Source: Pseudovirgaria hyperparasitica (taxonomy: Eukaryota). Taken from it: a stretch of DNA of 64,000 nucleotides. Shown one piece after another: positions 36,301 through 64,000 of the stretch. The notes below the pieces were generated by a model, which was given only the letters and a program-made list of their open reading frames with translations, was not told the DNA's origin and did no database searches. The stretch lies in assembly GCA_010093815.1 (NCBI GenBank), contig ML996583.1. The stretch is one strand, 5' to 3'. Each line of letters begins with the position of its first letter. Position 1 is the stretch's first letter. The translations under genes and the position numbers were made by a program.

Positions 36301-38937
36301 TATAGCTTATATTTTTCTAGCCTATCTAGGACTACGCGTATATACTAGATATATTCTTCTTCGTTATTAGAGAAGATAAGGATATTATTAAGGTATACGA
36401 TGCACGTCGTGTTAAGTAGGTCTACTAGCGCGTTATTAATATACGCTTAGAAGGTTCCTAGCGCGTTAGTTAGTCTAAAAGGGACTACTATATACTCGAA
36501 GTATCTATAACGGGTCCTAAACGCCGTTTTCTACTTATCGCCCTTCTTAATACGTAGGCGGTAGTAGGTATTATATAGATCGAGCTTAGTAAAGATCTTT
36601 ACGCGCCCTAGTCTATTAATAGACTCGGAGATAAGAGGTAGTAGATAACGATTCTTTCGCGTAATATTATTTAGACTACGGTAGTTAATATATAGACGGA
36701 GACTCCTATCCTTCTTCTTTATAAAGAGGATTAGAGCTTTGGCTAGAGATATACTAGGCCTAATCTATCCTTACGTAAGGTTCTTTTTAATGTATTCTCG
36801 GAGGACCTATAGCTCGGGTTCTAATAGAGAGTAGATAGGTCCGTGTAGAGGTTATTAACTATCTTCGAGATTAATAGTAAGGTCGGTAGATTAGTATTAA
36901 GGTAATTTAGACGAGTCGATCGCTAACACGATATATTAGTATATTTTATACTAATATAGTAGGTTTTCGTCTACTTTAATACTAAGCTCTCTATTTTAAG
37001 TAAGTAAGAGGACGTAGATAGCGGAGATTACCTTTTCGTAGTCCTTCTAGAATTATTCGTCGTCGACTAGCTATACTAGGTTCTATTATAGTAGGTACAT
37101 GCGCCAGCCAGCTATTTTCTAGATAAAGTCTAGTTTCGGGTTATATTTTTCGAGCTACGGTATACCGAGGATTATATTAAAGGGACTATCTACCACGATA
37201 AAGGTTAAGTAGTAGGGTTTCTACTTCCCCCCGCTATCCTAGATACCGTATTTAATAGTATAGATACTCTACGATTTAATAGGACCGTTAATACCATAGA
37301 AGGTAGTACCTATTAGTACTTAAATATCGACGTTAAGTTCTCGTGCTCGTTAAGTCGATATAACGTTAGTAGCTAAACTACTATTAAGTATTACGGTCTA
37401 ATATTATCTACGAGGGACCTCGATAGGCCTAGCCTATAGTTCGATATACTAGTTAGCTAGTTATCCCTCTATTTTAGTTACACCTATAAGTTACGAGGGT
37501 TCCTTATAGATAGTTAGTTTTTTATATTATATACCGGGTAGTTAGGCGCGATATATCCTAGCTACTAGTACTTATAGTATATAACTAACTTAGTATCTAT
37601 ATTAGTATTCGGTGGTTTCCCTAAGCGGTACTCGGGTACTATATAATCTATTCTACTATAGGTGTAGTAGGTAACTTTAGATTATTTATATAAGTCGTTT
37701 CTCGCGTCTCGATATATCGACTAGTAGAAAGATCCGTGGTACGGGCCTCGTCTTCTTAAGTTCGTAGAGTAGTAGCGCCCATAAGGTATTCCGCGCGATC
37801 TATTACTAAACCGGTCCTCTTTAGATAATTTTATATCGGATTAGATTAATAGGGATAGTCGTGCGCCTATACGACGTTAGTTATTTATTATACGCTAATG
37901 TTATTCTACGAGATTCGCGAGTGCCTAAAGGTTGGTAGAGATAGATATTATAAGGTTAATACGTTCCTTTACGCTCGGGTTAAGGGACCTTTTAAAGTTA
38001 TCGCATTATCGAACTATATAATCTTCCTTAGCTTCTCTCTAAAGAGGTCGGAGGTATTTAAGAAGTTATAACGGGAATTATCTCTCTTACTATTAAGTCT
38101 TAAAGATATAGCTCTAAGCCTATTCGCGTCGCTCGGCTCTATTACTAAAGTATTAAAGAAGGAATTCGGTGAACGTGTCCTAGTTATACGCATCCTTAGG
38201 GTGTTTAATTCGATATACCATCTAACGTTCAGATAGTATTAGGTCTAGGTAGTTCTATACGAACCTAATCTTATTACTATTATTCGTAAATAGATAGAAG
38301 AATCGGCTATACTAGTAAGCCTATTCGTAAAAGCTCCTCCTGGTTTTACCGTCGAAGTAAGGTAGTTTCTTAGGCTAAGGTAACTAGGATAGTAATAGAC
38401 TTAGTTAGACTGTTTCGGCTTAAGTTAATCTATATTAGTATAGATTAGTTACTACTAGCACTAAAGCGCGTAGTGCGGCTTCGAGTCTAGCGGTTTATTC
38501 TCGCGCTTTATCGAGTTCACGAAGTTACTACTTAAGCTAAGCCTAACGCTATCTCTCCGTGTATAGCTTAGTATATATATTATTATAAGGCGTGGTTAAC
38601 GTTAGTCGGTTCTAACGAATTAATTCATTAACGTTAATAGGGTCTAGTCTTATAGTAAGGATAGGTCTAGTATAGTATAAACTAGACCGCGATAGAGTAT
38701 AATAGACTCCTTCCTTATTATCTAGGTAATCTTCTACGGTTATACGGAATACCGTACTAGTTATTAGTGCGATAGTCTATAGGGTATACTTATTAGTGGA
38801 GGTGGTTATAGGGAGACTATTCTCTTCGTTTAGATTTAGAGAGAGTCTCTCGTGTAAGGTAGTACTACGGGTATTATAGCGCCTAGTAGGAGCTATCTCT
38901 ATAAGCTACCGTTATACTATATAGAGAGGAATTAAAA

Positions 38938-39175
38938 TATATAGAGTAAAGACGTGGGATAGTAGTCTAATAGTTTATAGAGAGATATAGGAATGTATTT
39001 ATAGAGTAATCTTACTCTTATACGAGGTTGATTCCTAACGAGTAGGAATCGGTTTATACAGTCTACTTATATAGTGACCTCGCTTAACTTAGCTAACTCA
39101 ACCTAGCTCTGGCCACTACGTGGCTGTATAGATTAGAATAGTCTATATAGGTCCGTTATGGTTCCCGTCCTAACA
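38938..39175 (-). repeat. 5' LTR of A1 (type A LTR)
   Basis: Ends ...CCCGTCCTAACA on the plus strand (TGTTAGGACGGG on the element strand); followed by TSD TATAC. Confidence 0.95.
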
Positions 39176-39407: not shown

Positions 39408-39780
39408 TATGGAAGGCCGCTCCTGCAGCCCTACATGTATATGTCCCTAGCTCGATTACATGGCTTTATTATATATTTAAGGAGGGCGTTTTTCCTTGGT
39501 CATTCTACTCGGCGCGCTTCCCCCATCACTAATATTCGACTATTTAACCTTTTCTTACGTTTATAGGCCTCTATAGGTATTAATTATTAGACTTAGCTAT
39601 TAAAGAATTAATTAAGAGTATTATATAGACCCGTCCTATCGTAAAAGAGAACTAATAAGAAGTCGTACGTTCAAAGAGAACTTATAATACCTAGGAGAGA
39701 TACTTGTGAGTTCGTCGCGACTACTATACTAGGAATATAGCTATTTATAAAAGGGATACACGTGGCGATAGCTTACTATA
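39408..39780 (+). repeat. 5' LTR of G2
   Basis: T(A/G)TGGAAGGCCGCTCC...GCTTACTATA; direct repeat of 50476-50848. Confidence 0.95.
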
Positions 39781-40299
39781 ATTTTAGAGGTTATACCCGG
39801 ACTATAAACTTATAGGGGGAGATTAGGACTCCGAAACTAGCTTAGGGGAAGTATATGGCGTGCCTAATAAGGTAGTCTAGACTTACTAGATCGAAGCCAC
39901 GAGTCTAGAAAATAGGGAGTCCGGAGTCGCTAGGGGCTAGCCTCTTAAAAGTAGCCGTAAAAAGTATACGCATGCTAACACGGGTAATAGCGCGACTCGA
40001 AAATGTCTTAGGGGAATAGAATATAAAACAGGGCCAGATGAAGTAGTAAAGAAGAGTTTAAAAACGATAAATACAACCTATTTAGTACTACCATAGCTGT
40101 TATTTATAAACACGGCTACACGAGTATACCACTTTAGGAACGCCTTATACAAAGATAATAATATAAGTAGGATACCGTGAACCTTATATCGATGAAGACG
40201 ATAGTAATAGTTCACCTTATAAAGGGATTAGTTAACATAGAGAAGGGATAATAGATGTTATAGGTAGACGCATTAGGCTAACCTTTAGTTAAGGTAATC

Positions 40300-43200
40300 C
40301 CTTGACTAATAACCTTACCCCTAGCGTCTCTACTAGTATATCTACTACTAGTAATAGTGCGATAGAAGCTTAAAATAACGACCTAGTAACTTATAGAGAG
40401 ATACTTAACTTCTTCGTAGCATTTGCGCGATAAGGAAGGATAGTACCTCTATCTACCCTAGCCCCCGAGCGCTTTAAAGGAATAAATATTACGGCCTTCC
40501 TTCGGAAGTACGAGGACATGTATATAAACTATAAAGTTCCGCCTAATAAGAAGATAACCTCCCTACTATTATACTATAAGGACTATCTCCGTCCTACTAT
40601 TAAAGGAATAAGTAGGTTTTAGAAATAGTAGTGGGCCACGCTACGTAAAGAATTATTAAAGGAATTCTCTCTATTTAACTCTACCCTTAAGGAAGGCACC
40701 ATCTACTTTATCCGAAAATACGTGGAAATGGTTAAAGTAGACCTATCCTACTCTCTCTCTATGTACTACTCCCGGTATCGTGTTATTATAGAGAAACTTA
40801 CGGCTAAAGGAAGCCTAAGCTTATATTCGCGAATAGAGCTCTTCCTAGAAGGGCTGCCTAATAGTCTTAAGGCTCGGGCTATAGAGAAATGTTAACTCAT
40901 AATAGAAGTACATAGTTACGACTAGGTAATTATCTATGGCTTCGTATTACGAAAGGCTAGAGTACTTAAGGAACTAGCTCGTATTAATAAGTACTTAGCC
41001 GCATAAGAGCTAGCCATAGCTATATACCATAAATTAAAGATAGGGAGTAAGAAGACCGGCTTAGAAGAGTAGTTACATGAAGAAAGAAGAACTAATGAAT
41101 TTAACTACCCCTCTCTAGTCGTAGTATACGTCGCGCTAGAATTGGATAAGTTTAACGAGATAGTAGAGAGATTTAGTAAACTAGACCTTACGTTAATTAA
41201 GATAAAGTCCTACTTTACCTCTAATCCCTTATTTCTATCTCTTAAGAAGTACGAACCTAAGCTACTTTCGGCTATTATTAACTAGTAGGCGCGAAGGCTA
41301 AATCTTTTAGTATATCCCTAAGTATAAGGCATGCCTATAGAACTAACGTAAGTTTATCCATAGAATTATATATAGAATAGAGAATACGTCTCTACCCGAG
41401 ACTCCTAAGAAGGCGTTATAGCCTAGAATAGGCCTCGAAGACTAATTGTATACATTACGTACGGAGGAGATTACCTAATATATAGATATCCGGAGATAGT
41501 AGGATATATTAGAGACGGATTACTAAATATTAACAGGGTACGAGTATTCCAAGGGCGTTTCGGGGCGAATAGAGAAGAAATCCTATTACTACTCTCCTCG
41601 GTAGGGCTATAAGCTACTCTATAAGCTATCCGGAACTACGTAGTAATGGTTTAAAACGGCCTAAGCTAGTATAGAGGAGGAGTAAAGGTTTCTACGTCTA
41701 TAGTAAACATTAACGCTTTATAGAGAGTACTAGTATATAGTATTAGTATAAAACCTACGAAGGGTCCCTACTAGACCTTAGCGGATAGTAATTCGGAAGA
41801 AGAAGTTACGTCACCTAAGAGTAAGAAAGATAGATATATAGAATTCTACGAACGCTTCGACGTGGCTAGTAATAGATATATCTATAAGGAGATAGCCCTA
41901 GAAGAGCCCGCTATGCTCGTAATATCTAGAAGGGGGATTACGAAGAGTATACCTAATTATACTAAAGAAAGAAAGATCGCCTGTCTCCGCGGAATGCGTG
42001 AAGGGTAGTATATAAGAATTATTAAGGAATAGAAGGACGGCGAGAAGAGTAGCGACTAGAGAACGTCTAAATAAGAGCCAACGGCGCCGGAGGATAAGAT
42101 AGATAAAGGGGATGGCCTAAATCCTAGTTAAAAGGTATATATCTAAGGCGTTAAGCTTAATAACTATCTACACGAAGGATAGCGGCTAAGTATAGAAGCT
42201 AGCGAAGCATGGCTAGTGCGCGTTCTAGGGATAACTATAAATATTACTATTAGCGAACTATTAAGCCTTAATAGCGACTTATATCGTGCGGTATTCGAGA
42301 AGGGCGCCCCCGACTTTATAGCTAGAGAGGTCTATAAGACTCGAGAAGAGAGAGCCGAGAAGAAAGAAAGAAACGACTATACTATGGCTCCCGAGATAAA
42401 TAAACTTAACGTATTAGTACCCCTCTATACTATAGAGATAGCTATCACGTAATAAGATATTAATTAGCTTAAGGAAGGGATAGTAAGGCTAGTAGCTAAG
42501 TATCCGAGGTACCTTATAGAAGTTAGTCCTAAAAGGGCGACTAGTATAGTACTATTTAATAGTGGCGCATAGATAAATAGTATTCGACTAGATACTACGA
42601 GGCGTCTTAGGCTAGCGATATCTTCGCTTCTACTATATATAAAGAACTCGAGTTTAGTTAGCGCTACTTAGTATAGTACTCTATTTATAGGAATAGTATA
42701 GTAATACCCTATCCGCATAGATCGGATCGTTATAGCTACTTTAATATTTATATATAGCGAACTTAATTATAACCTTATCCTAGGGGAGCTATATACTAGA
42801 TAGGCCTTACTTACGGTGTAGAGGTTAGCCTCTAGGTAAGTACTCTTAATAGTCTACTCCGTATATAGATAAGAACGTATAACCTTTAAAACTAGTCTAG
42901 ACGAGTATATTCTAGTCTTAGAGAAGGAGGGTAACTCCGTGGCTAGAGACTAACTATATAGCGGAGTATATCGCCGGAAGCTGGAGTTAAGCCGGATTAT
43001 TAGTTAAGGGCTACCCTTAACTAATAATCCGTACTAAATAGAGTCCGGTAAACCTACTAATAAAGGGGATAGGCTATATTTTTATACGTATATAGAAATA
43101 AGTTATATAGAGTTACTTTCCGAGAAAATCCGGCCTAAAAATATTACTTAGTTATCGAGAAAAGATGACTTAGCTACCCTAGTTACGGCGGTAAGGTACG

Positions 43201-46200
43201 CTACCTTTATATATAAATAAGGCACGATAATAGAACGGCTTATAGTAGACTCTACCGGCCTCTTAAGACGGTATTCATCTAGGGTATTAAAGGGATTTAG
43301 TATGGCTACCATGTATAAAAGAAAGGGAGTTAAAGTATACCCCGTGGATAACTCCGAAGCCTACCGAAAGGTTCCTAGAAATCTATTAGGGTATCTAGAC
43401 TAGCGTAAACGAGTAATCGCATAGTAGATACTTCTTCTAGCCGTCTACCTAGGCCTTAATACGTTTAATAGACTAATAGAGCCTTAAAGGGTAACTATCC
43501 CGCTAGGAACACGTCTAACGCCTCTATATATAAGTTAGCTAAAGATTAGAATAGAGCTACGTCCCGCGGAACTTAAGTTACTATATATAATCTTATTATA
43601 TCGCGAGGAAGCACTAGTATAGAAATTCTTATACCTTAGTAAATTTAACGAAGAGGTGGTATCTCCGTAGGAGATCCGAACGGTAGAACATAAGATATAG
43701 TAGGCTAAGAACTTTAATATTTCTAGAGCCCTTTATAGAAAGGTACTTACGATTCTAAAAGAGCGTCTTAATAGCGGAAGGCTCGAGCCCTATAGTAGTC
43801 CTTATTAAAACGCCTATTTTCTCGTGGAAAAGAAGAAGGAAGCTAATAAGGAACGAGATTATAGATTAATCAATTCGGCGATAGAAATTAACCGAGTCAC
43901 TATTCGTAATATGGCCACGCCGCCCTTATATAAAGAGTTCTCGGAGCACTTTACGGGGATAGCCGTCTTAACATTTACTAACTTCTTCTTAGGATATAAT
44001 TAGATTCTATTAGTAGAGTATTACTAAGACTTAACGGGGTTTATAACGCCCCTAGAATTACTACACGGGATAATATTACCTTAAGAGGCTACTAATTTAG
44101 TAGCTTAGTTCGTTAGAATTATATTAACTATTATATAAGAATATATCCCGGAGAGGGCTCTACTATTCCTAGATAACTTAGATATTAAAGGACCTATAAC
44201 GAAATATAACTCTAAGGAGGCCCTGCCTAGAATTCGTAAGTATATCCTAGAATATTTAATTAACGTGGATAAGGTTCTCGCGGATATAGAGCGCGCCGGA
44301 TACGCCCTAAGTAGTAAGAAGACTTAGTAGTATATTAAAGCCACTAACGTTATAGGATACGTCTACGATATTAAAGGGAGGCGACCGAGTAATAAAAAGG
44401 TTACTACTATTAGGGACTGGAAACCCTATAAAAACACGACGAATATGCGAGCCTTCCTTAGCGTTTATATATATTTCCGGATATGGATCCCCGGGTACGC
44501 TATTATCGCATCGCCGCTATTTATACTATTAAAGAATAAATCGGCCTAGTAGTAGATAGCTAAGGAGTAGACCTCGATAGACGCGCTAAAGATAGCTCTA
44601 ACTACTACTCCCGTACTAATAACGTTACGGTACGGGATAGGTATAGGAGATATAATTCTAGTAGTAGACTCTAGTAACGTTAGGTAGGGAGCTACATTAA
44701 TATAGGAGAATAAGAATCGTAAACGTTAGCTATCGCGGTATAATAGAGGAATATAGTTAAAAGCTAAGAGAAACTACGATACCGTGAAGCTAGAGTACCA
44801 AGCCCTCCTCCACGCGTTATAGAAGTTCTAGTAATATCTCTATAGTATATACTTTATTATAGAAATAGACGCGAATACTCTAGTTACTTAAATTAACCGC
44901 ACTATAACTAACTTACTAGGGGCGCTCGTTACTAGGTAGCTCGCGTAGATTTAGCTATAGAACTTTATAGTTAGGCACGTACCTAGAAAGCGTAACGTAG
45001 TCGCCGACGGTATCTTACGGATATATAAAGGAGAAGAACTACTAGACGTCCCTACCTTTAACCTAGACGAGTTTATAGATATGGCTCTATATATAGACGT
45101 ACTAGAGACGTCGTTAATCAAGCCCGTTAGCGGGAGAGATTACATGATAGGGATACTCGACTATACCGCCATTAAGTCTCCCTTAATAGATAAATATAGC
45201 GATAAATAGTAGAGGATTACGAAATACCTTACTATACTTAAGAGGCTAACCGACCTAACTAACTAAGTGTATAAGGCCTTTATAACCGACTACCTAAAGT
45301 TCCTTATATATAACTAAATACTCTAGCGGAGAGGAGATAGACATCGCTAACATACACGAGTAATTAAGGATCCGAATACTAGGGCGCGTATAATTACCGC
45401 TACTTATAACGAGATAGATTATAGAGGTAGCGAAGGGACCCTCGGAAGGATTAAGGATAAGTATTAGTAGGTAGGTATACATAGAGACGTGTAATAGCAC
45501 GTGAAAATCTATAATAAATATTAACGACGAAGTAAACTCCTTGGAGGTCTTAATAAAGGGCTCTACCACGTTATAACGCCTGTTCTTTAGTAAAGAATAT
45601 ACTTAGACGTAACGACGCTACTACCTTCTATAGGGTATAGTAAAGTGGTATCTATACGAGAATAGCTAAGCGGATAGACTAAGGCGGAGGCATGTACGGC
45701 GGCTACGTCCATAGTCGTCGTAAAGTTCCTCTTTAAGAACGTAATCTATAGATATAGAATTATTCCTAAAATCACCTATAACGGTAGTAGAGAAAATATG
45801 GGTGCCATAGAGGAGCTCCTCTAACTCTATGGAATTTATTAGAAGGTTACGTCTACGTATAATCCCTAAGTAAATAGAATTATTAAGAGAAGTTTTATAC
45901 TACTCGCTAATGCTCTTGCGAAGATAACTAATGGCGGATTTAAGAACTGGCCCGGCTACCTCTATACGGTTATCTAGGTAGATAGAATAACGACACGTGC
46001 TAGTATAGGGTATAGTACCGTATACCTCGTGCTCGGCCATAAACTAATCATGCCTATTAAAGTCGAATTTAAGTCGCTCTAAATGCTCCCTTAGGACGAG
46101 GTGTAATCGACGTCCGACTTACTCGCTCTTTGAGCTAGATAACTTAAGAGAAGATCCGAGGATCTTAAGGAGGCCTATATCTACGCGATACGAACGCGTA

Positions 46201-46650
46201 AGGAATCGAGAGAGGCATGGAATAATAACCATTACCTTTATTAAGAGTCGTTACTAGTTAATACGATTATCCTTCTTTACGACTCGTAGTAATAGAAGGA
46301 TATAGAGCGGAAGCTAAGGTAGCATTAGAGGGAGCCATATAAAATCTAGTCCGTGTTTAATTATACTTATAAGCTCGCGGAGCTTAATAGAGCCATACTT
46401 AGAGAGACGTTTCCTAGCTATAGGTTAAAGAAATATTTTATAAGAAATATAAGTAACGAGAGTTACGATAAGCCCTTACGACTACTAATTAGAAGAATTA
46501 CCGAGGAAAATAAGGAGAGTGGCGATAAGGAAAACTATTATAAATAACTTACGGAATACCTCGACGACGCTACACGAACCCGGGTGGAAGTGGTAATTCC
46601 TACTCCGTAAGACTTTAATAGAGAAGAATATTTACGTTTCCCTAGAATTA
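40300..46650 (+). pseudogene. gag-pol relic of G2 (approximate ends)
   Basis: Gag-like FKGINITAFLRKYEDM (~40473); protease LF(N/D)SGA (~42552); RT FF(L/S)GY(N/D)(*/Q)I (~43983) and FLD(N/D) (44166-44177); RNase H VVDSS..G(*/W)GA (~44661); integrase YNP(*/Q).N(R/G) (~45858). Confidence 0.9.
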
Positions 46651-47343
46651 ACATCTTCTTCTAGGGGATAGAAGTTTTTTTAAGGAGGGAAGGAATACTT
46701 ATAAAAGTAGTCTTATAACGATAAACTCTATTATCGAAAAAGGACGATGAACTCCATCATCGAAAGAGGATAATAAACCCTATCATTACTATAAAATAAT
46801 AAAACTTATTATTAAAGTAAGTAATGCTCGAAAGAAGATATAATGGCGTTTACGCGAATTCCACCTACTATATATTAAAGCCGGTCGTGTAATCGAAGCC
46901 TACCTATCGAAGGCCCATTTCGTTACTATAGAACGGGCCCTATTAGGAACTAATAAGGAAGAAAAGAAGGAGGAGGTATAGGAGAAAAAGATACTTATAG
47001 GAAGTCTTATAAGGATGAGAATATACCCGGTATCTATTTATTTATAGATTCCGCTATATACCTAGTGGATACATTCATTCATAGATTTCCTATATATCTA
47101 GTATATATTTATTCATAGATTCGACACGTATACGGGCCTACGGCCGTTAGTAAGGATCATTTATAAAAATTACTATATACCCGGCATTCAAGGAGGTATA
47201 AAAAGAGAACTTAAGATAGTATATAACTCTTCCCTCTTACACCTCTCTATACCTCCTTAATTAATAAAACCTCCTCCTCTACTTCCGCCTCGCTTAACTA
47301 TCTCTCCTTAGAACGTAACTCGCTAATAGAACCGATAATAATA

Positions 47344-50277
47344 ATGGCCCCGCTAAAAAAGAAAACGCCTACCTATAAAGAGTTATAAGATCGTTAAGTA
47401 CTAATAAGATAGACGCGGTCCTAGTTAAGAGTCATAAGTACTAAAGTAGAGCCATTAACGGCTATCGTGGTATCGAGGCCATCTACTACTCCGTATAGAT
47501 AGGCTATAGAAGCTACGGAAGTAAATAAGTCTACCATTAACCGAATTATCGCCATCTAGAACCCGCAAGAGCGATAGGACTATATTCTAGATATATTTAA
47601 TAATCTTCTTCATATTACCAGCCTTATAGAATAGCTCTTAAGTAGTATAGTTAACCTCTTCTAGGAAGTAGGAGCCGTAATAGGGTATAGTAAGGTAAAG
47701 ATTAACTTCTCCATTCCGAAAGAAGTCCACGAGATAATTCGTTGTAGAAGAGATACCAACTCCCATATTCTAAAAGCTAAAAATATAATCCTATAAAACT
47801 AGCGAAAAGACCTCCCTAATAATAACGGCTAGTTACTCTAATCCGCCCTCGGATAGCTCTAGTAAATATAGAACTTCATGGAAAAGCTAGTAGCGCTCTT
47901 ATAAATACGGACATGGGTAAGAGCGAGGAACTAGTTAAATATATCTCTATAGTCCCGAATCGGCCAGGGATAGAAGAGAAGGGGAATTAAGGTATATCTT
48001 TAGAGCTCTAATATCGATACCGCTCTAGCTAGTAATAGTAACGAGGATAGTCTATCTCTCTAGTAACTCTCGAACTACCCTAGCTAATAAAATGAACTAA
48101 CGTTCCATAATAAGACGGGACTTATTATCCCCGCTAGTTAATAGTTATAGATAAGTAGAATGGTTCATAGGCCCGTCGAATACTACCTATAAATCAAAGA
48201 GATAAGTATATCGCCTCCGCCTTAGACCTTACCGTCGCTAAAACTAGCGTAGGTAACGCCCGTGGTAAAGTCCCCTCCATAAAGTACGCCTCCTAGTTTA
48301 GTAGTATGTTATCTCTTCGAAGCTAGTTATCCGTTTAAAGTAAGTATTCCTCCTACTACTACTAGTATACGTCCCTTACCGGGCCATGCGAGGATCTCTT
48401 TAGTACCTATTACGGCCATACTAATAAAACCCACTCGCGGACGTGCCTCATCTACCGGCCCTTAGTAATTACCAGGGGCGCCTACACGATAATCCCTAGT
48501 TATTCTTAGTTCGTACCCTAAGACGATAGTATCGGTTAAGGAAGAGGACGAGCCTAAGAAGTATTAATGCGCGCCTTTAGTGACGAAGACTTTTAAGGTA
48601 GCTATATTATTAAAGAAGAATTTCACGAGCATTAAGGGAATAGCCCTACTAGTACGCTAGAAAGCGTAGATAGGTAACATGGCTATTCCATATAAAGTCT
48701 ACTATAAGCATTACTAAGACGTGGCTAGAAAGAATGATATACTTATTAGCGTGTTCTACTTGAACCTAGTAGCGAGACTTAAAATGGTATATAAGTTTAG
48801 AGATAACGTGGGGGCCCTTAAAGTTTATAAGGACTACTACACCTAGTTCGCGAAGTACGCGCGGCCACCTCATCTAATAGAGGCATTAGATATCTATTAT
48901 TACTAGGCCCTAGAGACCCCGAAGTAAGTTATTAATATTAAAACTATCCTTACTAGTATCGTATTTATAATTTAGAAGAAGGACGGTAGGATAGGTAGGT
49001 AACTCTTCGACGAGTAGAAACGTACTAGAAGTATTAATATTAAAGGGCTCTTCGAGCCACTTAAAAAGACAACCTCTATACTTAATAAGAGTATTCTAGA
49101 ACTCGCGAGGGATGAATTTAATATATATAAGTACCACCAGTGTATATTTAATAAGAAATCGAACTACGGCTGGCTACGAACTATATACCACTCCTATATC
49201 TAATAGTTTATTAGGTAATATCTACTTTACTAGCTCACCTATATCGCTCTTCGGCCTAATCTTAACTACTATCTAATCTCGTACCCGTACTATGCGAAGT
49301 CCTAGGATAGAGGCGATAAGACGGGTTTTAAGTATCTCGATAACGCTATTAATCGAATCCTCGATTCTAGCGATAGATACGGGTTTAATATAATCTAGGG
49401 GAGTATTAGTCTCGACGACGAACGAAGTAACGACTATACTATAATCGTTCCCCGCTCCTATAAGTTCTTAAATAAATAGTAGTCGAAGGCTAAGCTCCGC
49501 GAGGGGGTCAATCGAAACGGTATAATTACGGCTATTAACGATAAGATCTATAATACGGACGATAAGAAACGATTTAGTCCCTTCGTCCTAGTCCTCTACT
49601 AGTCCCTTAAAGTATATATCTCTAGCCCACTAATAATATACGGCGCCTAGGGTCCCGTAAAGGGTAGAAGACGTATAATACTTCTATAGTATATCGCAAT
49701 TAGCCCTAATCATATAATAATAGAAGTACCTAAAATAGGCATATAGGAATAACTCGTAGTAGCTTATAGGAATTTAACTCCGGGACCTACGTCTCCGTCG
49801 GGATTTTCTAATAAATATAGCGCGATTCCTTTTGCCTTCCTAGCCGTAGTTTAACTCCCGAGTTTTAACGCCGTTAGTAACACATTAGTCAGCCGTAAAA
49901 GATAGAATAGCTAGAAGGTAAAAGAAGAGGTAGCTACGTGGCTTAACGTAAGTCCTTAATAACTTAAAGCTAAGGTAGACACCTAGTTTAAGGAGGGCTC
50001 GAGGGTATTCGTAGAGACCTTTAAGAAAATAGTAAGGTAGGAAAGGCTAGTCTATGGGGATAGGTCATTCTAGAAGGAATTTAACAAGGCGCGCGCCGCT
50101 AAGCGGCTAATTAATTTTAAGAAATTCGAGCCCGACGCGGGCCTAGATAATATTAAAGAGAACTTCTATAGATAGGAGAGGCCTAACAAACTATCCGACG
50201 AGGAGGAATCTAACCTCTCTAAGATAAGCGACACGATTCTTTAGGAGCTGGCTCGCGACCTTAAGTACTAAGATTAG
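47344..50277 (+). pseudogene. RIP-degraded cargo ORF (~980 codons) with a C-terminal PhyH-like 2OG-Fe(II) dioxygenase domain
   Basis: The ATG at 47344 is in the same frame as the conserved-looking block at 49081-50277, where the stops are TAA/TAG. It reads NYGWLRT.YHS, ALRP, LISYPYYAK, T.F.(H)LD, I(Q)GSISLDDE, (H)GA.GP..GRRR..L(P)(W), SPSGFSN.Y.AIPFAF. Confidence 0.75.
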
Positions 50278-50475
50278 GCGCCTAAAAACCTACCTAATTA
50301 TTAGTTAAGGGCTACCCTTAACTAATAATCCGGGCTAAGGTTTACCCGCGCCGAGAGGTTTACTAGGGGCGCATTTTTTTTATATTAAGGTCTTTCTTTT
50401 AGGCGTTCTTTATACGGTTTCTTACACGGTTACTATACTACTAAGGGTAGTAGTTCTACGGGCCGGGGAGGTATA

Positions 50476-50848
50476 TATAGAAGGCCGCTCCTATAGCTCT
50501 ATATGTATATGTCCCTAGCTCGATTATATAGCTTCATTATATATTTAAGGAGGGCGTTTTTCCTTAGTCATTCTACTCGGCGCGCTTCCCCCATCACTAA
50601 TATTCGACTATTCGACCTTTCCTTACGTTTATAGGCCTCTATAGGTATTAATTATTAGGCTTAGCTATTAAAGAATTGATTAAGAGTATTATATAGACCC
50701 GTCCTATCGTAAAAGAGAACTAATAAGAAGTCGTGCGTTCAAAGAGAACTTATAATATCTAGAAGAGATACTTGTGAGTTCGTCGCGACTACTATACTAG
50801 AAACATAGCCATTTACAAAAGGGACACACGTAGCGATGGCTCACCACA
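50476..50848 (+). repeat. 3' LTR of G2
   Basis: Ends GCTCACCACA, preceded by PPT GGGCCGGGGAGG. Confidence 0.95.
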
Positions 50849-51467
50849 ATATATAATTATAGATAATAGTCTCTAGTAGGGTTATTAGACCCTTTAGTAC
50901 TAGAGTTATAGATTTATATATAGATATAATAGATTAGGATATAAAGAATAATAAGGTAATAATTATATTACTCTTATTAATATATTAAGATCTTATTATA
51001 GGTCTTACTTTCTATAATATAGTAGTAGCTATATAGAGTTATCTATTATTATATTTTAACTATAATATAGGTAATTCTTTAATATATCTATTTAGATTAC
51101 TTACTAACCTCTACTATAAAGATAGAGAAGATATCTATGAATATATTAATAATTTCTATTATACCTAGATATGAATAGTAAAAAGATATACTACTTTATC
51201 TTATATAGTTATAAAAGTAATATATCTAATCTTTAAGTCTAAAGAGATTAAGAGCTTATTCTTTCTTATCTTATTATCTAATACTATAGACTATATTATT
51301 AATAATTTATTAACTCGAGATATATTATAATTTTAAGATATTAAGCTAAAGATACTTAATCTAGCTAAGAAATATAGTATTAAATCTAATACTACTAGCT
51401 ATAAGGTAAGCTATAAGGGTAAGTCTAGTTAGCCTTCTAAGTTAAAGAAGTCTAACTTCTTCTCTAC

Positions 51468-51707
51468 TATTAGGGCTAACACTAGAATAGACTTAACTAG
51501 ACTACTATAGTCTAGTACGGTCCGTGATAGGTGGACCTAGATTAAGTTAGCTAGAATAAGCGAGACTACTATATAAGTAGACCGTATATACTTAATTCCT
51601 ACTCTTTAGAAATTAATCTCGTTAGGAGAGTAGACTACCCTTTTAAATATATTTCTAAATCCTCCTATAATCTATTAGACTACTATCCTACGTCTATAAT
51701 CCTTATA
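51468..51707 (+). repeat. 5' LTR, type B
   Basis: TATTAGGGCTAACACTAG...CCTTATA (ex TG..CA); the same sequence restarts at 63911. Confidence 0.92.
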
Positions 51708-54700
51708 TTTTAATTTCTCTTTATATAGCACGACGGTAGTTTATAGAAATAGCTCTAACTACTCGTTATAATACTCGTGGTACTACCTCTTATAATAGAC
51801 CTTCTCCTAATCTAAACGAGGAGAATAGTCTATCTATAACTACCCCTACTAATAACTATATCTTATAGGCTATTATACCGATAACTTATATAATATTCCG
51901 TGTAACTATAGAAGATATTATAAAATATAAGGATAGAGTCTATTATACTCTATCTTGGTCTAGTTTAAACTATACTAGACCTAATCTTAATATAAGGCTA
52001 GACCTTATTAACGTTAACAAGTTAATCTATTAGAATTATCTAATATTAACTATACCTTATAATAATATATATACTAGACTACACGAAGAGAGATAATAAT
52101 AGGTTTAACTTAAGTAATAACTACGCGAACTCGACGAAGCTTAAGAATATACTATAAGACTTAAAGCTATATTATACGCTTTAGTTCTAGTAACGACTAA
52201 TCTATATTTATATAGACCTATACTAACTAAAATAATCTATCCTAGTCTACTACTATTCTAATTACTCTAACCTAAGAAACTACCTTACTTTAATAGTAAA
52301 AGTAGAAAGAGTTTCTATATATAGACTTACTAATATAGTTAATTCTTCTATCTATTCACGAACGATAGTAATAAAATTAGATTCGCCTAGAACTACCTTA
52401 ATCTAATACCTTTAGAACATTAGATAGTATACTAAATTAAATATTCTAAGGATACCTATAACTAGGACACGTTTACTAAATTTCTCCTCTAATATTTTAG
52501 TACTAGGGCTAAATAACGTAACTAGACCTAGAGCTATATCTTTAAGACTTAATAATAAGATAATTAGTTACTATTATAACTCCTTAAATACCTTCGGCCC
52601 CTCTAGAGAGAAGCCGAAGAAGATTATATAATTTAATAGTATGACAACTTTAAACGGTCCCTTACCCTAAATATAAAGGACCGTCTTAACCTTATAATAA
52701 TAATCTCTATAGATCTCTAAGCTCTTATAAACCTCGTAGAGTAATACTAGTATATAATAAATAATTAACGCCGCGCTAGTATACGACTATCCCTAATAAT
52801 CTAATCTAATATAAAATCGTCTAACTAAAACTAATTTAGTAATAGATCTCGCGGGACGTTATAAGGCTACTACTATACCTTAAATTTAAAACCACGCGGA
52901 TTATATCGTGGGTCTCCCTACTAATTAATATATTAAGATATAAGGACCGACTTATATAAATAACCTAAAGTTACTTACTATACCTATAGTAGAATAGGCT
53001 ATATAGTATCTAAGTACTATTTAGAGAAGCTACTAAGTACTAATATAACTAACTAACTAGTTATATACTATAAGTGCTAGTAGCTAGAATATATCGCGTC
53101 TAACTACCTAGTATAGAATATAAAAAACTAATAGCCTATAAGAAACCCTCGCGACTTATAGATATAACTATAATAGAGGGGTAATCCGCTAAATAGTATA
53201 TTAAACTATAGACTAGATCTATTAAGGTCCCTTATAGATAATATTAGACTATAATACTTAATAGTAGGTCGGCTACTAATATTATATTAACCTAACGAGC
53301 ACGAGAACTTAACGCTAATATCTAAGCTCTAATAGATACTATATTCTATAGTATCGATAGTCCTATTAAGTTATACGGCACCTATACTATTAAATATAGT
53401 ATCTAGAATAGCGGAGGGAAATAGAAACTCTACTACTTAACCTTTATTATAGTAGATAGTCCCTTTAATATAATTCTAGGTATACTATAGCTTAAGAAAT
53501 ATAATCTAAAACTAGACTTCCTTAAGAAGATAGCTAGCTAGCGTATAAATCTACCTTAATAGGAACTAGTATAGCTTATAGATAATAAATAATTCTAGAA
53601 AGATTATAAGAAGATAATCTCTACTATCTACATACTCTTACTTACGTAAAATAGTAAGCTTAGTATTAAAGTAGATAAAAACCTACTATATTAGTATAAA
53701 ATATACTAATATATCGCGTTAGCGATCGATTCCTCTAAACTACCTTAATACTAATCTACTAACCTTACTATTAATCTTAAAGACGGCTAGTAACCTCTAT
53801 ATAGACCTATCTACCCTCTTTTAGAATCTAAGTTATAAGCCCTTTAAGAATATATTAAAAAGAACCTTATCTAAGGATAGATTAGGCCTAGTATATCCCT
53901 AGCCGGAGCTCTAATCATCTTTATAAAGAAGAAGGATAGGAGCCTCTATCTATATATTAACTATTATAGTCTAAATAATATTACGCGAAAGAATTATTAC
54001 CTACTACCTCTTATCTCCGAGTCTATTAATAGACTAGAACGCGTAAAGATCTTTACTAAGCTTAATCTATATAATATCTACTATCGCCTTTATATTAAGA
54101 AGGGTAACGAATGGAAAACGGCTTTTAGAACCCGTTATAGATACTTTAAGTATACTATAGTCCCTTTTAGACTAACTAACACGCTAGATACCTTCTAAGT
54201 ATATATTAATAACGCGCTAGTAGGCCTACTTAATATAATATATATTATATACCTAGATAATATCCTTATCTTCTTATATAACGAGAAGGAGTATATCTAG
54301 TACGTATATATAGTTCTAGATAGGCTAGAAAAGTATAAGCTATATATTAAGCTATCTAAATGCGAGTTCTATTAGGACCATATTAACTTTCTTAGCTTTA
54401 TTATTACTAATTAAGGTATAACTATAGAGAGAGATAGAGTTACTACTATTATAGACTAGTCTAAACTAAAATCCGTTTAAGATATACGTGTCTTTATTAG
54501 CTTTACTAACTACTACTAAAAATTTATTAAACACTTCTCCTATTTAGCCGTACTACTTAATATATATACTACTACTACTAACTCGTCTATTACGGTCCGT
54601 AGTAGATAGAAATAGCGTAATATTAAATTATAATCTATTAAATTAACTAAGGTCGAAAGAATATCCTTCGAGAAGATTAAAGAAGTATTTATAACCACTC

Positions 54701-56083
54701 TATTACTAGTATACTTTAATCTAACTAAACCTATTTACGTTAAAACTAATATATTAGAATTTATAATCTTAGGTATACTCTTCTAGCCTAGACTAATAGA
54801 GTCTAAAAAGGTCTAATAGTATCTAGTTACGTTCTTCTCGCGTAAGATAGCTAATATTAAGACTAGATATACTATTTATAACTAAGAGCTACTAGTAATA
54901 GTAGAGTTATTTAAGTAGTGGCGATATTATCTTAAAGGTACTATATATAACGTTAAGTTACTAACTAATTACTATAACTTAAAGGGGTTTATAAGTATAA
55001 TAGTTTTAAATCGTTAATAGATTTAATAGGCTAAGTAGCTTATAAATTTCTACTTTATAATCTACTATTAACCTAGAAGTATAAATCTAGCTAATAGAAT
55101 ATTAAGAAGACCTAACTATAAAGAAGGCGCCTAGAATTATAGTAGCTATAGGGTTCTAGAGTAGCTATAGACCTAACTCTTAAGGATAAGATTAGATAAT
55201 AAGTTATCTAATAATTAGCGAGATACTAACGCTAATACTAGTAATTAAATTTATAAGACCGAAGCCGGTAACTAAAGACGTAGTACCGAAGTCCCTAGCG
55301 AGCTATTTATCAGCGCTATTAGAGAAGGCGATAGTACCTAGCGTATATATTAAGTAGACCTCGCCTAGTTAATCGTAGATCTATAAAAGATAGACCTAAT
55401 AGTTTTAAAGTTACGTAAAATATAGTAAGATAGATTATTATAGACTAAAGTAGACTATAAGTAGACCTTTATAGACGGCTTACTCTACTATAATAGAAAG
55501 TACTATATACTAATAGATAACGTATAATTTACTATAGTTAGCCGATACTATAATGCTAACCTAGTAGGATATTTCGGGTATATACGCACCCTAAGCTTAA
55601 TTTATTAGTACTATTTTTAGAAAGATATACCTAAGTACATTAAAGAATAGATAGCTACTTATCTAATTTATTAAAGAATAAAGATACCTAGGCATAAGCC
55701 ATATAGGAACTTATAGCCTCTACTAGTCCCCCTCTTTATATAGAAAGATATTACTATAGATTTTATAGTTAACTTACCTCTAAGCGAGATGCTTAGAATA
55801 AGTTATAATTTAATTCTTATTATTATAGATAGACTTATAAAGATATCTAGGTATATCCCTATATAGAAGATAATTATATTAAAAGAACTAGTATAAGTAT
55901 TCTAGAATAATATTATTAAGGTCTATAGTATACTAAAAAGAATCGTTATAGACCAAGAGAGTATATTCACGTCTAAATTCTAGACGTTATTCTATAAAAT
56001 AGCCGGTATAAATAGAAATATATTAATAGTATTCTATCTATAAATAGATAGTTAGATAGAGTAATAGAACTAAACGCTTAAGA
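51468..56083 (+). mobile_element. Chromovirus-family copy A2 (type B LTR), 5' part, interrupted in integrase
   Basis: Type B LTR at 51468-51707. Gag-pol is homologous to 56380-60745 but diverged, with RT YLD(N/D)ILI at ~54251. It breaks at the integrase segment (Q)TDG(Q).E.(Q)N(Q)TL at 56083. Confidence 0.9.
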
Positions 56084-56141
56084 TGTTAGGCACGTGAGGA
56101 GCACGTGGCCTGCTAGTTGATTATATATGTATGTAGTAGTC
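56084..56141 (+). repeat. 58-bp stub, probable 5' end of an LTR from a third element
   Basis: Starts TGTTAGG exactly where A2 integrase breaks, is unrelated to the A internal sequence, and is cut by the type A LTR at 56142. Confidence 0.6.
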
Positions 56142-59100
56142 TATTAGGACGGGAACCACAACGGACCTATGTAGACTATTCTAATCCATGCAGCCACGTA
56201 GTGGCCAGAGCTAGGTTAAGTTAGCTAAGTTAAGCGAGGTTACTATATAAGTGGACCGTATAAACCGATTCCTACTCGTTAGGAATTAACCTCGTATAAG
56301 AGTAAGATTACTCTATAAATATATTCCTATATCTCTCTATGAACTATTAGACTACTATCCCACGTCTTCACTCTTTATATTTTAATTCCTCTCTATATAG
56401 TATAACGGTAGCTTATAGAGATAGCTCCTACTACGCGCTATAATACCCGTGGTACTACCTTATACGAGAGACTCTCTCTAAATCTAAACGAAGAGAATAG
56501 TCTCCCTACGACCACCTCCACCGATAAGTATACCCTATAGGCTATTACACTAATAACTAGTACGGTATTCCGTATAACTATAGAAGATTACCTAGATAAT
56601 AAGGAAGGAGTCTATTATACTCTATCGCGGTCTAGTTCATACTATACTAGACCTATCCTTACTATAAGACTAGACCCTATTAACGTTAACGAATTAATTC
56701 GTTAGAACTAACTAACGTTAACCACGCCTTATAATAACGTATATACTAAGCTATACACGGAGAGGTAGTATTAGGCTTAGCTCGAGTAGTAACTTCGCGA
56801 ACTTAATAAAGCGTAAGAACGAACCACTAGACTCGAAGCCGTACTACGCGCTTTAGTACTAGTAGTAACTAATCTATACTAATATGGATTAACTTAAGCC
56901 GAAACAGTCTAACTAAGTCTATTACTATCCTAGTTATCTCGGCCTAAGAAACCACCTTACTTTAACGGTAAAACCAGGAGGAGCTTTTATAAATAGGCTT
57001 ACTAGTATAGCCGATTCTTCCACCTATTCACGAACGATAGTAATAAGATTAGGTTCGTATAGAACTACCTAGACCTAACGCCATCTAAACGTTAGATAGC
57101 ACATCGAATTAAATACCCTAAGGATGCGTATAACTAGGACACGTTTACCGAATTCCTTCTTTAATGCTTCGGCGATAGAGCCGAGCGACGCGAATAGGCT
57201 TAGAGCTATATCTTTAAGACTTAATAGCGAGAGAGATAATCCCCGTTATAACTCCTCGAATACCTCCGACCTCTTTAGAGAGAAGCCGAGGAAGATTATA
57301 TAGTTTAATAATACGACGACTTTAAAAGGTCCCTTAACCCGAGCGTAAAGGAACGCATCGACCTTATAACGTCTACCCCTACTAACCTTTAGGCACTCGC
57401 GAATCTCGTAGAATAATATTAGCGTATAATGAATAACTAACGTTATATAGACGTACGACTATCCCTATTAATCTAATCTAATATAAAATCGTCTAAAGAG
57501 GACCGGTTTAGTAATAGATCACGCGGAACACCTCGTGGGCGCTACCACTCTATAAACTCGAGAAGATAAGGCCTATACCGCGGATCTTTCTACTAGTCGA
57601 TATATTAAGACGCGAGAAACGACTTATATAAACGACCTAAAGTTACCTACTATACCTATAGTAGAATAGGCCATATAGCACCCGAGTACCGCTTAGGGAA
57701 ACTACCGAATACTAATATAGATACTAAGTTAGTCATATACTATAAGTGCTAGTAGCTAGGATATATCGCGCCTAACTACCCGGTATACGATATAAAAAAC
57801 TAACTACCTATAAGGAACCCTCGCGACTTATAGGCGTAACTAAAATAGAGGGATAATTAGCCAACTAGTATATTAAACTATAGGCTAGGTCTATCAAGGT
57901 CCCTCGTGGATAATATTAGACCGTAATACTCGATAGCGGTTTAGCTACTAACGTTATATCGACTTAACGAGCACGAGAACTTAACGTCGACATTTAAGTA
58001 CTAATAGATACTACCTTCTATAGTATCGACGGTCCTATTAAATCGTAGGGTACCTATACTATTAAATACGGCATCTAGGATAGCGGGGGGAAGTGGAAAC
58101 CCTACTATTTAACCTTTATCGTGGTAGACAGTCCCTTTAATATAATCCTCGGTATACCGTGGCTCGAAAAATATAACCCGAAACTAGACTTTATCTAGAA
58201 AACAGCTGGCTGGCGCATGTACCTACTATAATAGAACCTAGTATAGCTAGTCAACGACGAATAATTCCAGAAGGACTACGAAAAGGTAATCTCCGCTATC
58301 TATGTCCTCTTACTTACTTAAAATAGAGAGCTTAGTATTAAAGTAGACGAAAACCTACTATATTAGTATAAAATATACTAACATGTCGTATTAGCGATCG
58401 ACTCGTCCGAATTACCTTAATACTAATCTACTAACCTTACTATTAACCTCGAAGACGGTTAATAACCCCTACATGGACCCATCTACCCTCTATTAGAACC
58501 CGAGCTATAGGTCCTCTAAGAATATATTAAAAAGAACCTTACGCGAGGATAGATTAGGCCTAGTATATCCCTAGCCGGAGCTCTAATCCTCTTTATAAAG
58601 AAGAAGGATAGGAGTCTCCGTCTATGTATCAACTACTATAGCCTAAATAATATTACGCGAAAGAATCGTTACCTACTACCTCTTATCTCTAAGTCTATTA
58701 ATAGACTAGGGCGTATAAAGATCTTTACTAAGCTCGATCTACGTGACGTCTACTACCGCCTACGTATTAAGAAGGGCGATAAGTGGAAAACGGCGTTTAG
58801 GACCCGTTATAGATACTTTAAGTATATAGTAGTCCCTTTTGGACTAACTAACGCGCTAGGAACCTTCTAAGCGTATATTAATAACGCGCTAGTAGGCCTA
58901 CTCGATACGACGTGCATTATATACCTCGATAATATCCTTATCTTCTCTAATAACGAAGAAGAACATATCTAGCACGTACGCGTAGTCCTAGATAGGCTAG
59001 AAAAATATAAGCTATATATTAAGCTATCTAAATGCGAGTTCCACTAGGACCACGTTAACTTCCTTAGCTTTATTATTACTAATTAAGGTGTAACTATAGA

Positions 59101-62100: not shown

Positions 62101-62119
62101 AGTAAATAGAGCCATAGAG

Positions 62120-63423
62120 CTACTCCTCTATCTTATTATTACTCTTAGAGCGTAGTAAATAAACTAACTAAGTAATAGAGCGACGGAGGTTAGAGACCTT
62201 ATCCTCTAGAGTAACTACGCGCTCGGTTAGAGTCTAGTAAGATAATAACTAAGCGCTAGAGCGGAGCGACTAGACCTAAAGTTAGCTAATACGGTCTAGA
62301 ATAATCTAGAATAGAATATATACCCTCTTACGAGGTAACTTAGAAGGAGAACTAGTAGATCTTTTATAAGACCCGTTAGTAGCACGAGACGGGTAGAAAG
62401 AAATAGTATAAATCTCTTCTACGGCCTTAGTAGCTAAAACTAACTCCCTAGAATAGATAGCCTAAGCGCTAGAAATCTCGCGGCGACTAAAAATTATAAG
62501 CTAAGGTTAATAATAATTAATAGTTTCTAAACTTATACTTTAATAACCTCTAGGAAGAGCTTATAGCGCTCTCTAAACTCTCTATATATAGAAGCTAGAT
62601 AACTACTAGAACTACCGAGAGTCTCACGGACACGAAGATCGTTATATATATTTTATATATAAATAGAAACCTAAAAACGCATTAGCATGGACGACTTTAG
62701 ATTACCCTAGACTAAAATAGTCTAATAGACTTACCTAAAGATAAACTTTACTAAGGATAGTATAGTAGTAGTAGCGGGTAGAGAGCTTAAAGATTAGATA
62801 TATAGATCTATTATAGTTAGTAGAGTAGTAGCTAATACTAGAGTTAGAGCGGAAGAGATATTTAGAGCTAGTTATATAAGCCTTAATATACTTAAAGTAT
62901 ATTAAACTATAGTTCGCCGTTTTCCTATAGCTAAACCGCGACTATATTTAGTATCTTTAGTAATCTAGGCCTTATTATTACTAGAGCTAGATTTAGAGTA
63001 AATATTAAGGTCCTAAAAGGACCTAGAGTAACTAAGTTAGTCTATATTAGACCGAAAAGAGGAATGGCGTTTAGAGCGAGGCGGCGAAGGTATAAACTCT
63101 TAATTATTATCTATAATAAGATCTTCTTTATCCTCTAAAGGAGTTAGAGTAGATAGATAGCGCGAGTAGATATAGATAGACTTTATAGCTACCTCTTCTA
63201 TAATACTAGTACTAGAATTACCTAGATTAGAGCGACTAGTAGCTACGTTAGTAGTAATAGTAGTAGTAGTCTTAGCTACCTTCTTCTCTAACTTAGAGCG
63301 CGCCTTTATACTACTATAATAAGTAGATTTTTTAGCTAGTATAGCCGGGGTAGAGGTAATCTCTTTAGAGCGAGTCTTACGAGAGGAGGAGATAGACTTA
63401 GAAATAGAACTAGTATTAGATAT
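62120..63423 (-). pseudogene. RIP-degraded antisense multi-intron gene, type B copy
   Basis: Introns on the minus strand at 63612-63424 (189 nt) and 62734-62671 (64 nt) have the same lengths as in A1; a further intron at 62323-62276 ends GCTAACTTTAG. The last exon reads LTERVVTLEDKVSNLRRSIT (coiled-coil-like). Confidence 0.7.
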
Positions 63424-63910: not shown

Positions 63911-64000
63911 TATTAGGGCTAATACTAGAATAGACTTAACTAGACTACTATAGTCTAGTATAGTCCGTGATAGGTGGACCTAGGTTAAGTTAGCTAGAAT
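63911..64000 (+). repeat. 3' LTR, type B (truncated by the window end)
   Basis: Matches 51468-51557 apart from transitions; preceded by PPT AAAAGGAAGAAGAA. Confidence 0.92.

Follow-up and report, generated by a model that had tools for sequence, protein, structure and literature searches.

Mobile elements that encode Fe(II)/2-oxoglutarate (2OG) dioxygenases have been described in plants and in fungi. Ty3/Gypsy retrotransposons of the orchid Phalaenopsis carry an extra open reading frame (ORF) for an ALKBH5-like 2OG dioxygenase that is reportedly active in vitro as an N6-methyladenosine (m6A) RNA demethylase (PMC9289625). Fungal DNA transposons of the KDZ/Dileera, hAT, Harbinger, IS3EU, EnSpm and Helitron types encode TET/JBP dioxygenases, and the study that describes them proposes that the enzyme counters methylation or C-to-T hypermutation (PMC12730594). 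For fungi, a 2025 survey states that TET/JBP dioxygenases are encoded by no retrotransposon, and a survey of fungal long terminal repeat (LTR) retrotransposons mentions only chromodomains or nested “complex” insertions as extra domains (PMC3248453). A host m6A demethylase is reported to promote an Arabidopsis LTR element (PMC10686560). Here we analyze a stretch of 64,000 nt from Pseudovirgaria hyperparasitica (contig ML996583.1, assembly GCA_010093815.1; hereafter the window), in which a Ty3/Gypsy element, G2, holds the remnant of a third gene, ORF3, between its integrase and its 3′ LTR.

We propose, with a probability of about 0.85, that a lineage of Gypsy elements carries between integrase and 3′ LTR a third gene that encodes a protein of ~950 aa with a PhyH-clan dioxygenase domain, and that this gene has been kept open, with its catalytic residues retained, under purifying selection. 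The arrangement resembles that of the orchid elements in that a Gypsy element has fixed an extra HxD...H Fe(II)/2OG ORF and kept it through rounds of replication; it differs in that the orchid case is a plant with an AlkB-family enzyme, whereas here the host is a fungus and the enzyme belongs to the PhyH clan (structural Z ~8 for AlkB-type proteins against 13–20 for the PhyH clan). With the TET/JBP transposons it shares a fungal mobile element whose 2OG dioxygenase seems to serve the element, and ORF3 homologues also lie beside Helitron and Plavaka genes, although the enzyme here is of the PhyH clan. In the literature searched, which did not extend to Repbase, subscription journals or supplements, no fungal LTR retrotransposon was described as carrying a 2OG dioxygenase, whether PhyH-type or of another kind, and the one comparable case in it was the AlkB-type RNA demethylase of the orchid Gypsy elements. 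The novelty thus lies in the kingdom and in the oxygenase family, since an LTR element with an oxygenase ORF is already known in orchids; the original prediction, to which no such characterized cargo of Gypsy elements was known, is corrected on this point (PMC9289625).

Element G2 and its third gene

G2 (39410–50848, plus strand) is a dead copy of a Ty3/Gypsy lineage found in Pezizomycotina, mutated by repeat-induced point mutation (RIP). It is bounded by two LTRs of 371 bp in direct repeat (39410–39780 and 50478–50848, both on the plus strand; spacing 11,068 bases) with TG...CA ends, the TG and the CA each being readable in one LTR and RIP-mutated in the other (the terminal CA of the 5′ LTR is mutated). 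The flanks, themselves RIP-mutated, read ATTA and ATAT, with no matching target-site duplication readable. A polypurine tract (PPT; 50460–50473, plus strand, GGGCCGGGGAGGTA) lies immediately 5′ of the 3′ LTR and is conserved with the tract at the equivalent position (GGCGGGGGAGGTA) in L008, an intact relative from a metagenome contig. The RIP indices of G2 are 1.73 for TpA/ApT and 0.25 for (CpA+TpG)/(ApC+GpT), compared with 0.67 and 1.27 in bases 1–30000 of the window.

The RIP-degraded remnant of gag, protease (PR), reverse transcriptase (RT), RNaseH (RH) and integrase (IN) occupies 40200–46600 on the plus strand in the frame of coordinates divisible by 3, as judged by the Pfam RT_RNaseH family, tblastn and a codon model. 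Searches by tblastn with the gag-pol of intact relatives place the gag remnant at 40473–40961 and the PR remnant, collinear with the intact L008 pol, at 42477–42944, and RT–IN (43293–46526) aligns to residues 122–1179 of the 1202-aa L008 pol with 34% identity over 1095 residues despite RIP. Matches of the L008-type pol to the other RTs of the window are weak (23–24% over 229 residues). By this sequence comparison the G2 pol is of the same lineage as the pols of its ORF3-bearing relatives; in L008 the Pfam domain order is RVT_1, RT_RNaseH, Integrase_H2C2, rve. Between the end of the G2 pol and the PPT lie ~3.9 kb, close to the ~3.8 kb that the original prediction gave.

ORF3 fills most of this interval (47344–50277, plus strand): a frame of 978 codons that opens at an ATG at 47344 and contains 71 stops, which we interpret as a gene, inactivated by RIP, whose product of ~950 aa ended in a PhyH-clan Fe(II)/2OG dioxygenase. 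The stops comprise 25 TAA, 46 TAG and no TGA, as the original prediction had said in reading them as a sign of RIP; the count stands, but it fails to discriminate between frames, because RIP removes TpG and TGA is scarce in all six (0–7 per ~978 codons). What identifies the frame is its coding content, and here the predicted protein-like block starting from that ATG proved correct. A codon model trained on G2’s own pol favors the ORF3 frame in all six 300-nt windows from 48601 to 50400. A phmmer search with the ORF3 translation, X-masked at stops, against 1.84 billion protein representatives (50% clustering) returned 508 relatives at E<=1e-3, of which 265 reach <=1e-10 and 63 reach <=1e-30; the top match (E 3.4e-65) is collinear (query 406–910 against 381–874 of 911 aa). 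A family profile built without the window sequence, when run on the six frames, matches the ORF3 frame only (E 1.6e-112), in two blocks: an N-terminal helical domain at 47518–48153 (plus strand; profile positions 39–238, independent E-value, i-E, 9e-8) and a conserved C-terminal region at 48538–50142 (plus strand; profile positions 328–845, i-E 5.5e-106) that includes a Cys/His module and the dioxygenase core. Pfam, applied to X-masked six-frame translations of G2, found solely RT_RNaseH-type domains, in pol, and no domain in the ORF3 region. Coding on the minus strand, considered because the stops of one antisense frame are slightly fewer than those of the ORF3 frame, was ruled out by the codon model, phmmer and the family profile.

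The same gene order in other Gypsy elements

When metagenome contigs were scanned with the family alignment, 364 relatives came up, from which 80 loci were kept; 38 of these have at least 3.4 kb upstream of the C-terminal domain and could be evaluated with tblastn using the window pol and intact pols. A Gypsy pol or an integrase remnant lies directly upstream on the same strand at 21 of the 38 evaluable loci; L047 is pol-linked as well, and L039 and L077 show this gene order on contigs that are circularly permuted. When the C-terminal domains are clustered at 60% identity into 30 clusters, a linked member occurs in eight, and the window represents a ninth lineage. LTR pairs 9.2–11.3 kb apart enclose both pol and ORF3 in L008, in L029 and in 12 RIP-mutated copies; in L007 the contig ends within the second LTR.

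L008 is complete: its LTRs are 99.6% identical over 279 bp and have TGTGG...CCACA ends, it shows a 4-bp duplication (CTAC), and all three of its frames (gag-PR, RT-RH-IN and, at ~950 aa, ORF3) are open. Both gag-pol and ORF3 are likewise open in L039, L048, L077 and L080, and a spacer of 0.5–0.75 kb separates pol from ORF3. Intact homologues thus do lie between an integrase and an LTR, the check that had been suggested for G2, and the pol–ORF3–LTR order recurs in independent Gypsy elements, so that the claim of an LTR family mobilizing an oxygenase is borne out beyond a single insertion. No fused pol–oxygenase protein turned up among the proteins longer than 1596 aa that were searched, which is weak evidence. 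Many of the family members listed are on contigs of ~9–13 kb, about the size of one element, which is suggestive of repeats collapsed by the assembler.

In their LTRs, PPT, PR-RT-RNaseH-IN order and Pfam content (PR, RVT_1, RNaseH, Integrase_H2C2 and rve, with a weak chromodomain match in L039), the ORF3-bearing elements resemble other ascomycete Ty3/Gypsy elements (Metaviridae), from which they differ in their length (10.6–11.4 kb), in a gag region that spans ~1000 aa and in a third ORF, 950–1240 aa long, past the integrase. Selection on that ORF was estimated from one pair of elements, L007 and L008 (dS 0.33–0.59). The ratio of nonsynonymous to synonymous substitution rates (dN/dS) is 0.071 for ORF3 (0.076 in the N-terminal half, 0.049 in the C-terminal region), 0.086 for RT-RH-IN and 0.198 for gag-PR, values that place ORF3 under purifying selection as strong as that on pol.

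Fold and catalytic residues of the ORF3 protein

Family members are proteins of ~800–1000 aa from Pezizomycotina, annotated as hypothetical or uncharacterized, with named sources that include Coccidioides posadasii, Rhinocladiella mackenziei, Sclerotinia borealis, Xylona heveae, Penicillium frequentans, Venustampulla, Coleophoma and many lichen-forming fungi. Their likeness to PhyH at the sequence level is faint. Precomputed PF05721 assignments exist for 12 of the 120 relatives listed, two of which JGI names PhyH; our own Pfam scan found PhyH in five of 17 relatives (E 1.5e-4 to 3.6e-3), one of them (P0013, 22.5 bits) above the family cut-off of 22 bits and four more at 18–19 bits, the rest giving no match. 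Among the five ORF3s in a scan of 10 proteins, that of L080 scores 25.1 bits. The DUF1479 model gave no match at E<=0.01 in the 17 relatives or at E<=0.001 in the five ORF3s, and a search of PDB sequences with the window translation returned nothing better than coiled-coil noise at E 0.89.

The fold is much clearer. An AlphaFold2 model of the C-terminal 506 residues of the intact L008 protein, built from 125 aligned sequences, reaches a mean predicted local confidence (pLDDT) of 95.9 and a predicted template-modeling score (pTM) of 0.86. Foldseek matches it to SnoN, EvdO1, GriE, proline hydroxylase H11, EctD, YbiU and human PhyH (E 5e-7 to 2e-5). In an exhaustive VIA-align search YbiU (4rgk; Z 20.4, 277 residues aligned, root-mean-square deviation 3.4) and GIG2 (6akz; Z 19.3) come clearly first, followed by EvdO1 (14.9), the PhyH-like chain of the trypanosome RESC-C RNA-editing complex (8fnc; 14.7), human PhyH (13.6), PHYHD1 (12.9) and prolyl hydroxylases (~10); the AlkB-type proteins NMAD-1 (8.7), ALKBH2 (3h8o; 8.2) and ALKBH3 (8jnr; 8.1) are well below the PhyH-clan matches. 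No TET/JBP protein is among the structural matches listed by Foldseek and VIA-align or among the Pfam matches, an absence from the lists that does not exclude the family. On the strength of the model, the C-terminal core is a PhyH-clan Fe(II)/2OG dioxygenase with a double-stranded beta-helix (DSBH), and its likeness to YbiU and GIG2 is one of predicted fold, with no sequence match. The PhyH-like identity first read from the degraded G2 copy, and the DSBH expected of it, are thus recovered in the modeled relative, the Pfam matches being weak.

The catalytic residues were located in an alignment of the window ORF3 with 25 relatives, with column counts taken over 125 family rows. The codons TAT-CTC-GAT at 49333–49341 and TAC-GGC at 49639–49644, from which the original prediction had reconstructed two histidines, are present as described. 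The first set (plus strand) reads Y-L-D, placing Tyr664 of K-Y-L-D on the His of the near-invariant R-H-I-D column block of the HxD iron-binding motif, and the TAT is reachable by RIP from CAT; the TAC at 49639–49641 (plus strand) places Tyr766 of I-I-Y-G on the distal iron-binding His of L-P-H-G and is equally RIP-reachable. Arg776 (49669–49671, plus strand), the candidate 2OG-binding Arg, is intact in the window and invariant among the 25 relatives, 10 residues after the distal His; we take it, by analogy with PhyH, to bind the C5-carboxylate of 2OG. Window residues Y664, D666, Y766 and R776 therefore occupy the family’s H, D, H and R columns, which hold those residues in 122, 124, 123 and 123 of the 125 rows, and all four are present in five of the five intact Gypsy-borne ORFs. 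The HxD...H layout with its downstream Arg is thus family-wide, and both reconstructed histidines fall on near-invariant His columns (122/125 and 123/125). The block first read as IQGSISLDDE..CT.IVP..H also agrees with the family consensus, both in QGSISLDDE and in the ensuing C-T..(I/V)(L/V)P..H.

The G2 copy itself lacks the triad, since both His positions are Tyr codons, each one RIP transition from His. At 118 columns at least 80% of the 25 relatives share a residue; the window agrees with them at 71 of these and departs at 47. For 35 of the 47 departures, C>T or G>A changes suffice to derive the window codon from one that encodes the conserved residue, compared with none for the reverse transitions and three and two for two sets of transversions. 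Before RIP the copy was therefore an ordinary member of the family: the two His-to-Tyr changes are of RIP type, with His as the likely earlier state of codons that now read Tyr, and the ancestral gene had the full HxD...H triad.

Upstream of the DSBH the L008 model shows a well-packed extension with a near-invariant CxC...CxxH motif. Its remnant in the window (48562–48711, plus strand; columns C407, C409, C453 and H456) reads Y-stop-C...Y..H, with C407 and C453 as TAT/TAC codons that RIP can produce from TGY; our guess is that the module binds zinc. The long N-terminal part, which the original prediction left unassigned, is real and conserved, with the profile match noted above. In an intact relative residues 14–205 are predicted to be helical with pLDDT >90 and are followed by ~150 disordered residues. 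Fold searches with this domain gave generic helical matches in VIA-align (best Z 6.8) and, in the ESM Atlas, no usable match by features and a TM score of ~0.3 by structure. The ORF3 protein thus begins with the helical domain, continues through a disordered linker and a Cys/His module, and ends in a dioxygenase core with an HxD...H triad and downstream Arg. The DSBH, the HxD...H motif and the Arg 10 residues past the distal His are shared with the PhyH clan (PF05721), DUF1479 YbiU and GIG2, from which the ORF3 protein differs in having only 11–17% identity, about three times the length, and a helical N-domain, linker and CxC...CxxH motif that those enzymes lack. The tail of the L008 ORF3 (L008:10141–10419) is Arg/Ser-rich and basic; most free relatives end acidic.

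Family members outside Gypsy elements

The family is not exclusive to Gypsy elements, and several kinds of gene are found beside its free members. At two loci (L027:9038–17121 and L034:5553–10642) an intact member and a Helitron Rep/Hel gene are arranged tail to tail, 195–470 nt apart, the Helitron gene having the domains Helitron_like_N, PIF1 and DUF6570; a Helitron gene also lies upstream at L055. The oxygenase may thus be Helitron cargo as well, as TET/JBP enzymes are in some fungi. A Plavaka (KDZ-type) transposase, DDE_3, DUF6589 or a JmjC-domain ORF occurs at L070 (1016–2281 and 9913–10524), L028 (13015–14523) and L012 (18465–19046), the neighbors at L070 being a Plavaka transposase and DDE_3. 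Two non-Gypsy loci (L011:1409–5245 and L016:3263–7126) share an upstream ORF of ~1280 aa that is co-oriented with the oxygenase gene; with 24% identity to each other (E 4e-21), these two ORFs match no Pfam family at E<=1e-5 and may represent a conserved partner or another carrier element. Further neighbors of free members include DDE_1, DUF6589, DEAD-box helicases and ordinary genes (L035).

Proposed function

We suggest that the ORF3 protein acts as a hydroxylase or demethylase serving the element’s own propagation. It would probably be made from a subgenomic or internally initiated transcript, because the spacer of 0.5–0.75 kb parts it from pol. For the substrate, the class that we tentatively prefer by analogy is a silencing-linked macromolecule or the element’s own RNA or cDNA, that is, methylated nucleic acid or chromatin; the preference stems from the precedents of the AlkB-like enzymes of orchid Gypsy elements, the TET/JBP enzymes of fungal DNA transposons and the host m6A demethylase reported to promote an Arabidopsis LTR element. 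A small molecule is an equally possible substrate, and a protein (Gag, IN or a host factor) is a somewhat less likely one. By the same analogy ORF3 may have an anti-silencing role. A broader conjecture, which we hold to be doubtful, is that this PhyH-clan family is a recurrent, selected accessory gene of fungal mobile elements (Ty3/Gypsy and possibly Helitrons) that would oxidize a methyl mark on DNA, RNA or chromatin and so blunt defense by RIP or by methylation.

Alternative explanations

Several findings weigh against these proposals. G2 is one copy from P. hyperparasitica, seen within a 64-kb window, and with both His positions reading Tyr and 71 stops it can encode nothing functional. The PhyH cut-off is reached by only two of the 27 members scanned, and the family profile finds no match among PDB sequences. 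No pol lies upstream at 17 of the 38 evaluable loci, and a single element family, sampled in one metagenome series, accounts for 15 of the 21 linked loci; L012, L013 and L026 are identical in sequence. The copies linked to Gypsy elements are spread over more than one clade. The close structural matches are all small-molecule enzymes or proteins without known function, and a Z of only ~8 for the AlkB-type proteins argues against a nucleic-acid substrate by simple analogy.

These last points bear on an alternative that is possible, if with the odds against it: ORF3 would be a true element gene encoding a small-molecule enzyme, a metabolic passenger with no role in silencing or in the retrotransposition cycle. 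Every named structural neighbor (SnoN, EvdO1, GriE, EctD, KanJ, AsqJ and PhyH) is a small-molecule oxygenase, and the two best matches, YbiU and GIG2, are without assigned substrate in the sources consulted; YbiU figures in a paper on Escherichia coli genes lacking evidence of function. A metabolic passenger is harder to reconcile with a dN/dS of 0.07 inside a selfish element, equal to that of pol. It would likewise have to account for ~550 extra residues (the conserved helical N-domain, the long disordered linker and the Cys/His module) that are unusual for metabolic PhyH enzymes, and for free homologues that adjoin Helitron, Plavaka and DDE transposase genes, as would fit a role in mobile DNA. 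All three arguments are indirect.

The direction of transfer could also be the reverse of the one our proposal implies, with a gene of the host or of another transposon at the root and the Gypsy-adjacent copies as repeated secondary captures or chance adjacencies in repeat-rich DNA, a reading that we consider somewhat improbable. Stand-alone members are annotated in many NCBI fungal genomes. In a quick tree of 72 rows the linked rows appear in at least four places, the window sitting on a very long, unplaced branch (1.58). On the 24 rows whose context is known, the approximately unbiased (AU) test rejects the grouping of all linked rows in one clade (p-AU 0.003), the group having been named after the tree was seen, and the starred branches force at least two changes of state. 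Part of this rejection is supplied, however, by one near-identical pair, L052 with an IN remnant and L055 with none, and linkage is clustered on the tree, with four changes against 6.9 for shuffled labels (4 of 500 shuffles were as low). Integrase fragments just upstream of some “free” copies (L012/L013/L026 and L052) are expected of decayed elements and so point to decay, not capture, and wherever linkage occurs, orientation and distance are constant and the gene lies within an LTR pair. As the linked copies form no single clade and 17 of 38 loci are pol-free, capture may have run in either direction and taken place more than once.

It is highly improbable that a host gene or an unrelated mobile element merely landed in this G2 copy and was RIP-mutated with it, in a Gypsy family otherwise without oxygenase. 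Such a nested insertion would agree with the lack of a second copy of the ORF3 region within the window, with a GC skew that changes sign at ~47000 and with the pol-free homologues, but the order pol–spacer–ORF–PPT–LTR recurs in eight clusters apart from the window, including intact copies and examples enclosed by an LTR pair, the G2 pol is of the lineage found in ORF3-bearing elements, and the PPT right after the ORF is conserved with L008. That the frame is a chance protein-like stretch in AT-rich, RIP-mutated DNA, which the stop counts and the TAA/TAG-only pattern would by themselves allow, is refuted by matches to a real protein (E 3.4e-65) and to the family profile (E 1.6e-112) in one frame of six.

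Other features of the window

Bases 31000–64000 of the window consist of AT-rich repeats. Just past ORF3 lies a palindromic stretch of ~42 nt (50297–50338, no strand assigned), found as a 95% blastn self-match that also matches its own reverse complement; its other occurrence in the window is at 42996–43037, in pol between PR and RT. Its core is ATTATTAGTTAAGGG-CTA-CCCTTAACTAATAAT, and it may represent a very small insertion able to form a hairpin, or else a cis element. Upstream of G2, at 31248–39173, two further LTRs (241 nt, 93% identical, spacing 7685) delimit another RIP-mutated element, with a weak minus-strand RT match at 36087–36728 and no ORF3 homologue. Downstream, within 51465–64000, segments at 51627–53201 recur at 56299–57873 (spacing 4672, 74–87% identical), LTR-like units are suggested by a 93-nt repeat that occurs at 51465, 56139 and 63908, and there is a weak RT match at 58589–59230.

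Significance

To our knowledge, LTR retrotransposons rarely fix extra enzyme genes. Since ORF3 is as tightly conserved as the polymerase, the enzyme that it encodes should matter to the element. The genomes of Pezizomycotina are defended by RIP, DNA methylation and heterochromatin, and an element-borne oxygenase is therefore a concrete, testable candidate for a counter-defense. Intact ORF3 sequences in metagenome contigs make expression and assay feasible, and the analysis provides a first handle on more than 500 fungal “hypothetical proteins” (at 50% clustering). If the proposed role is true, ORF3 would be a retrotransposon-encoded anti-silencing enzyme in fungi and would represent a new substrate class for the PhyH fold.

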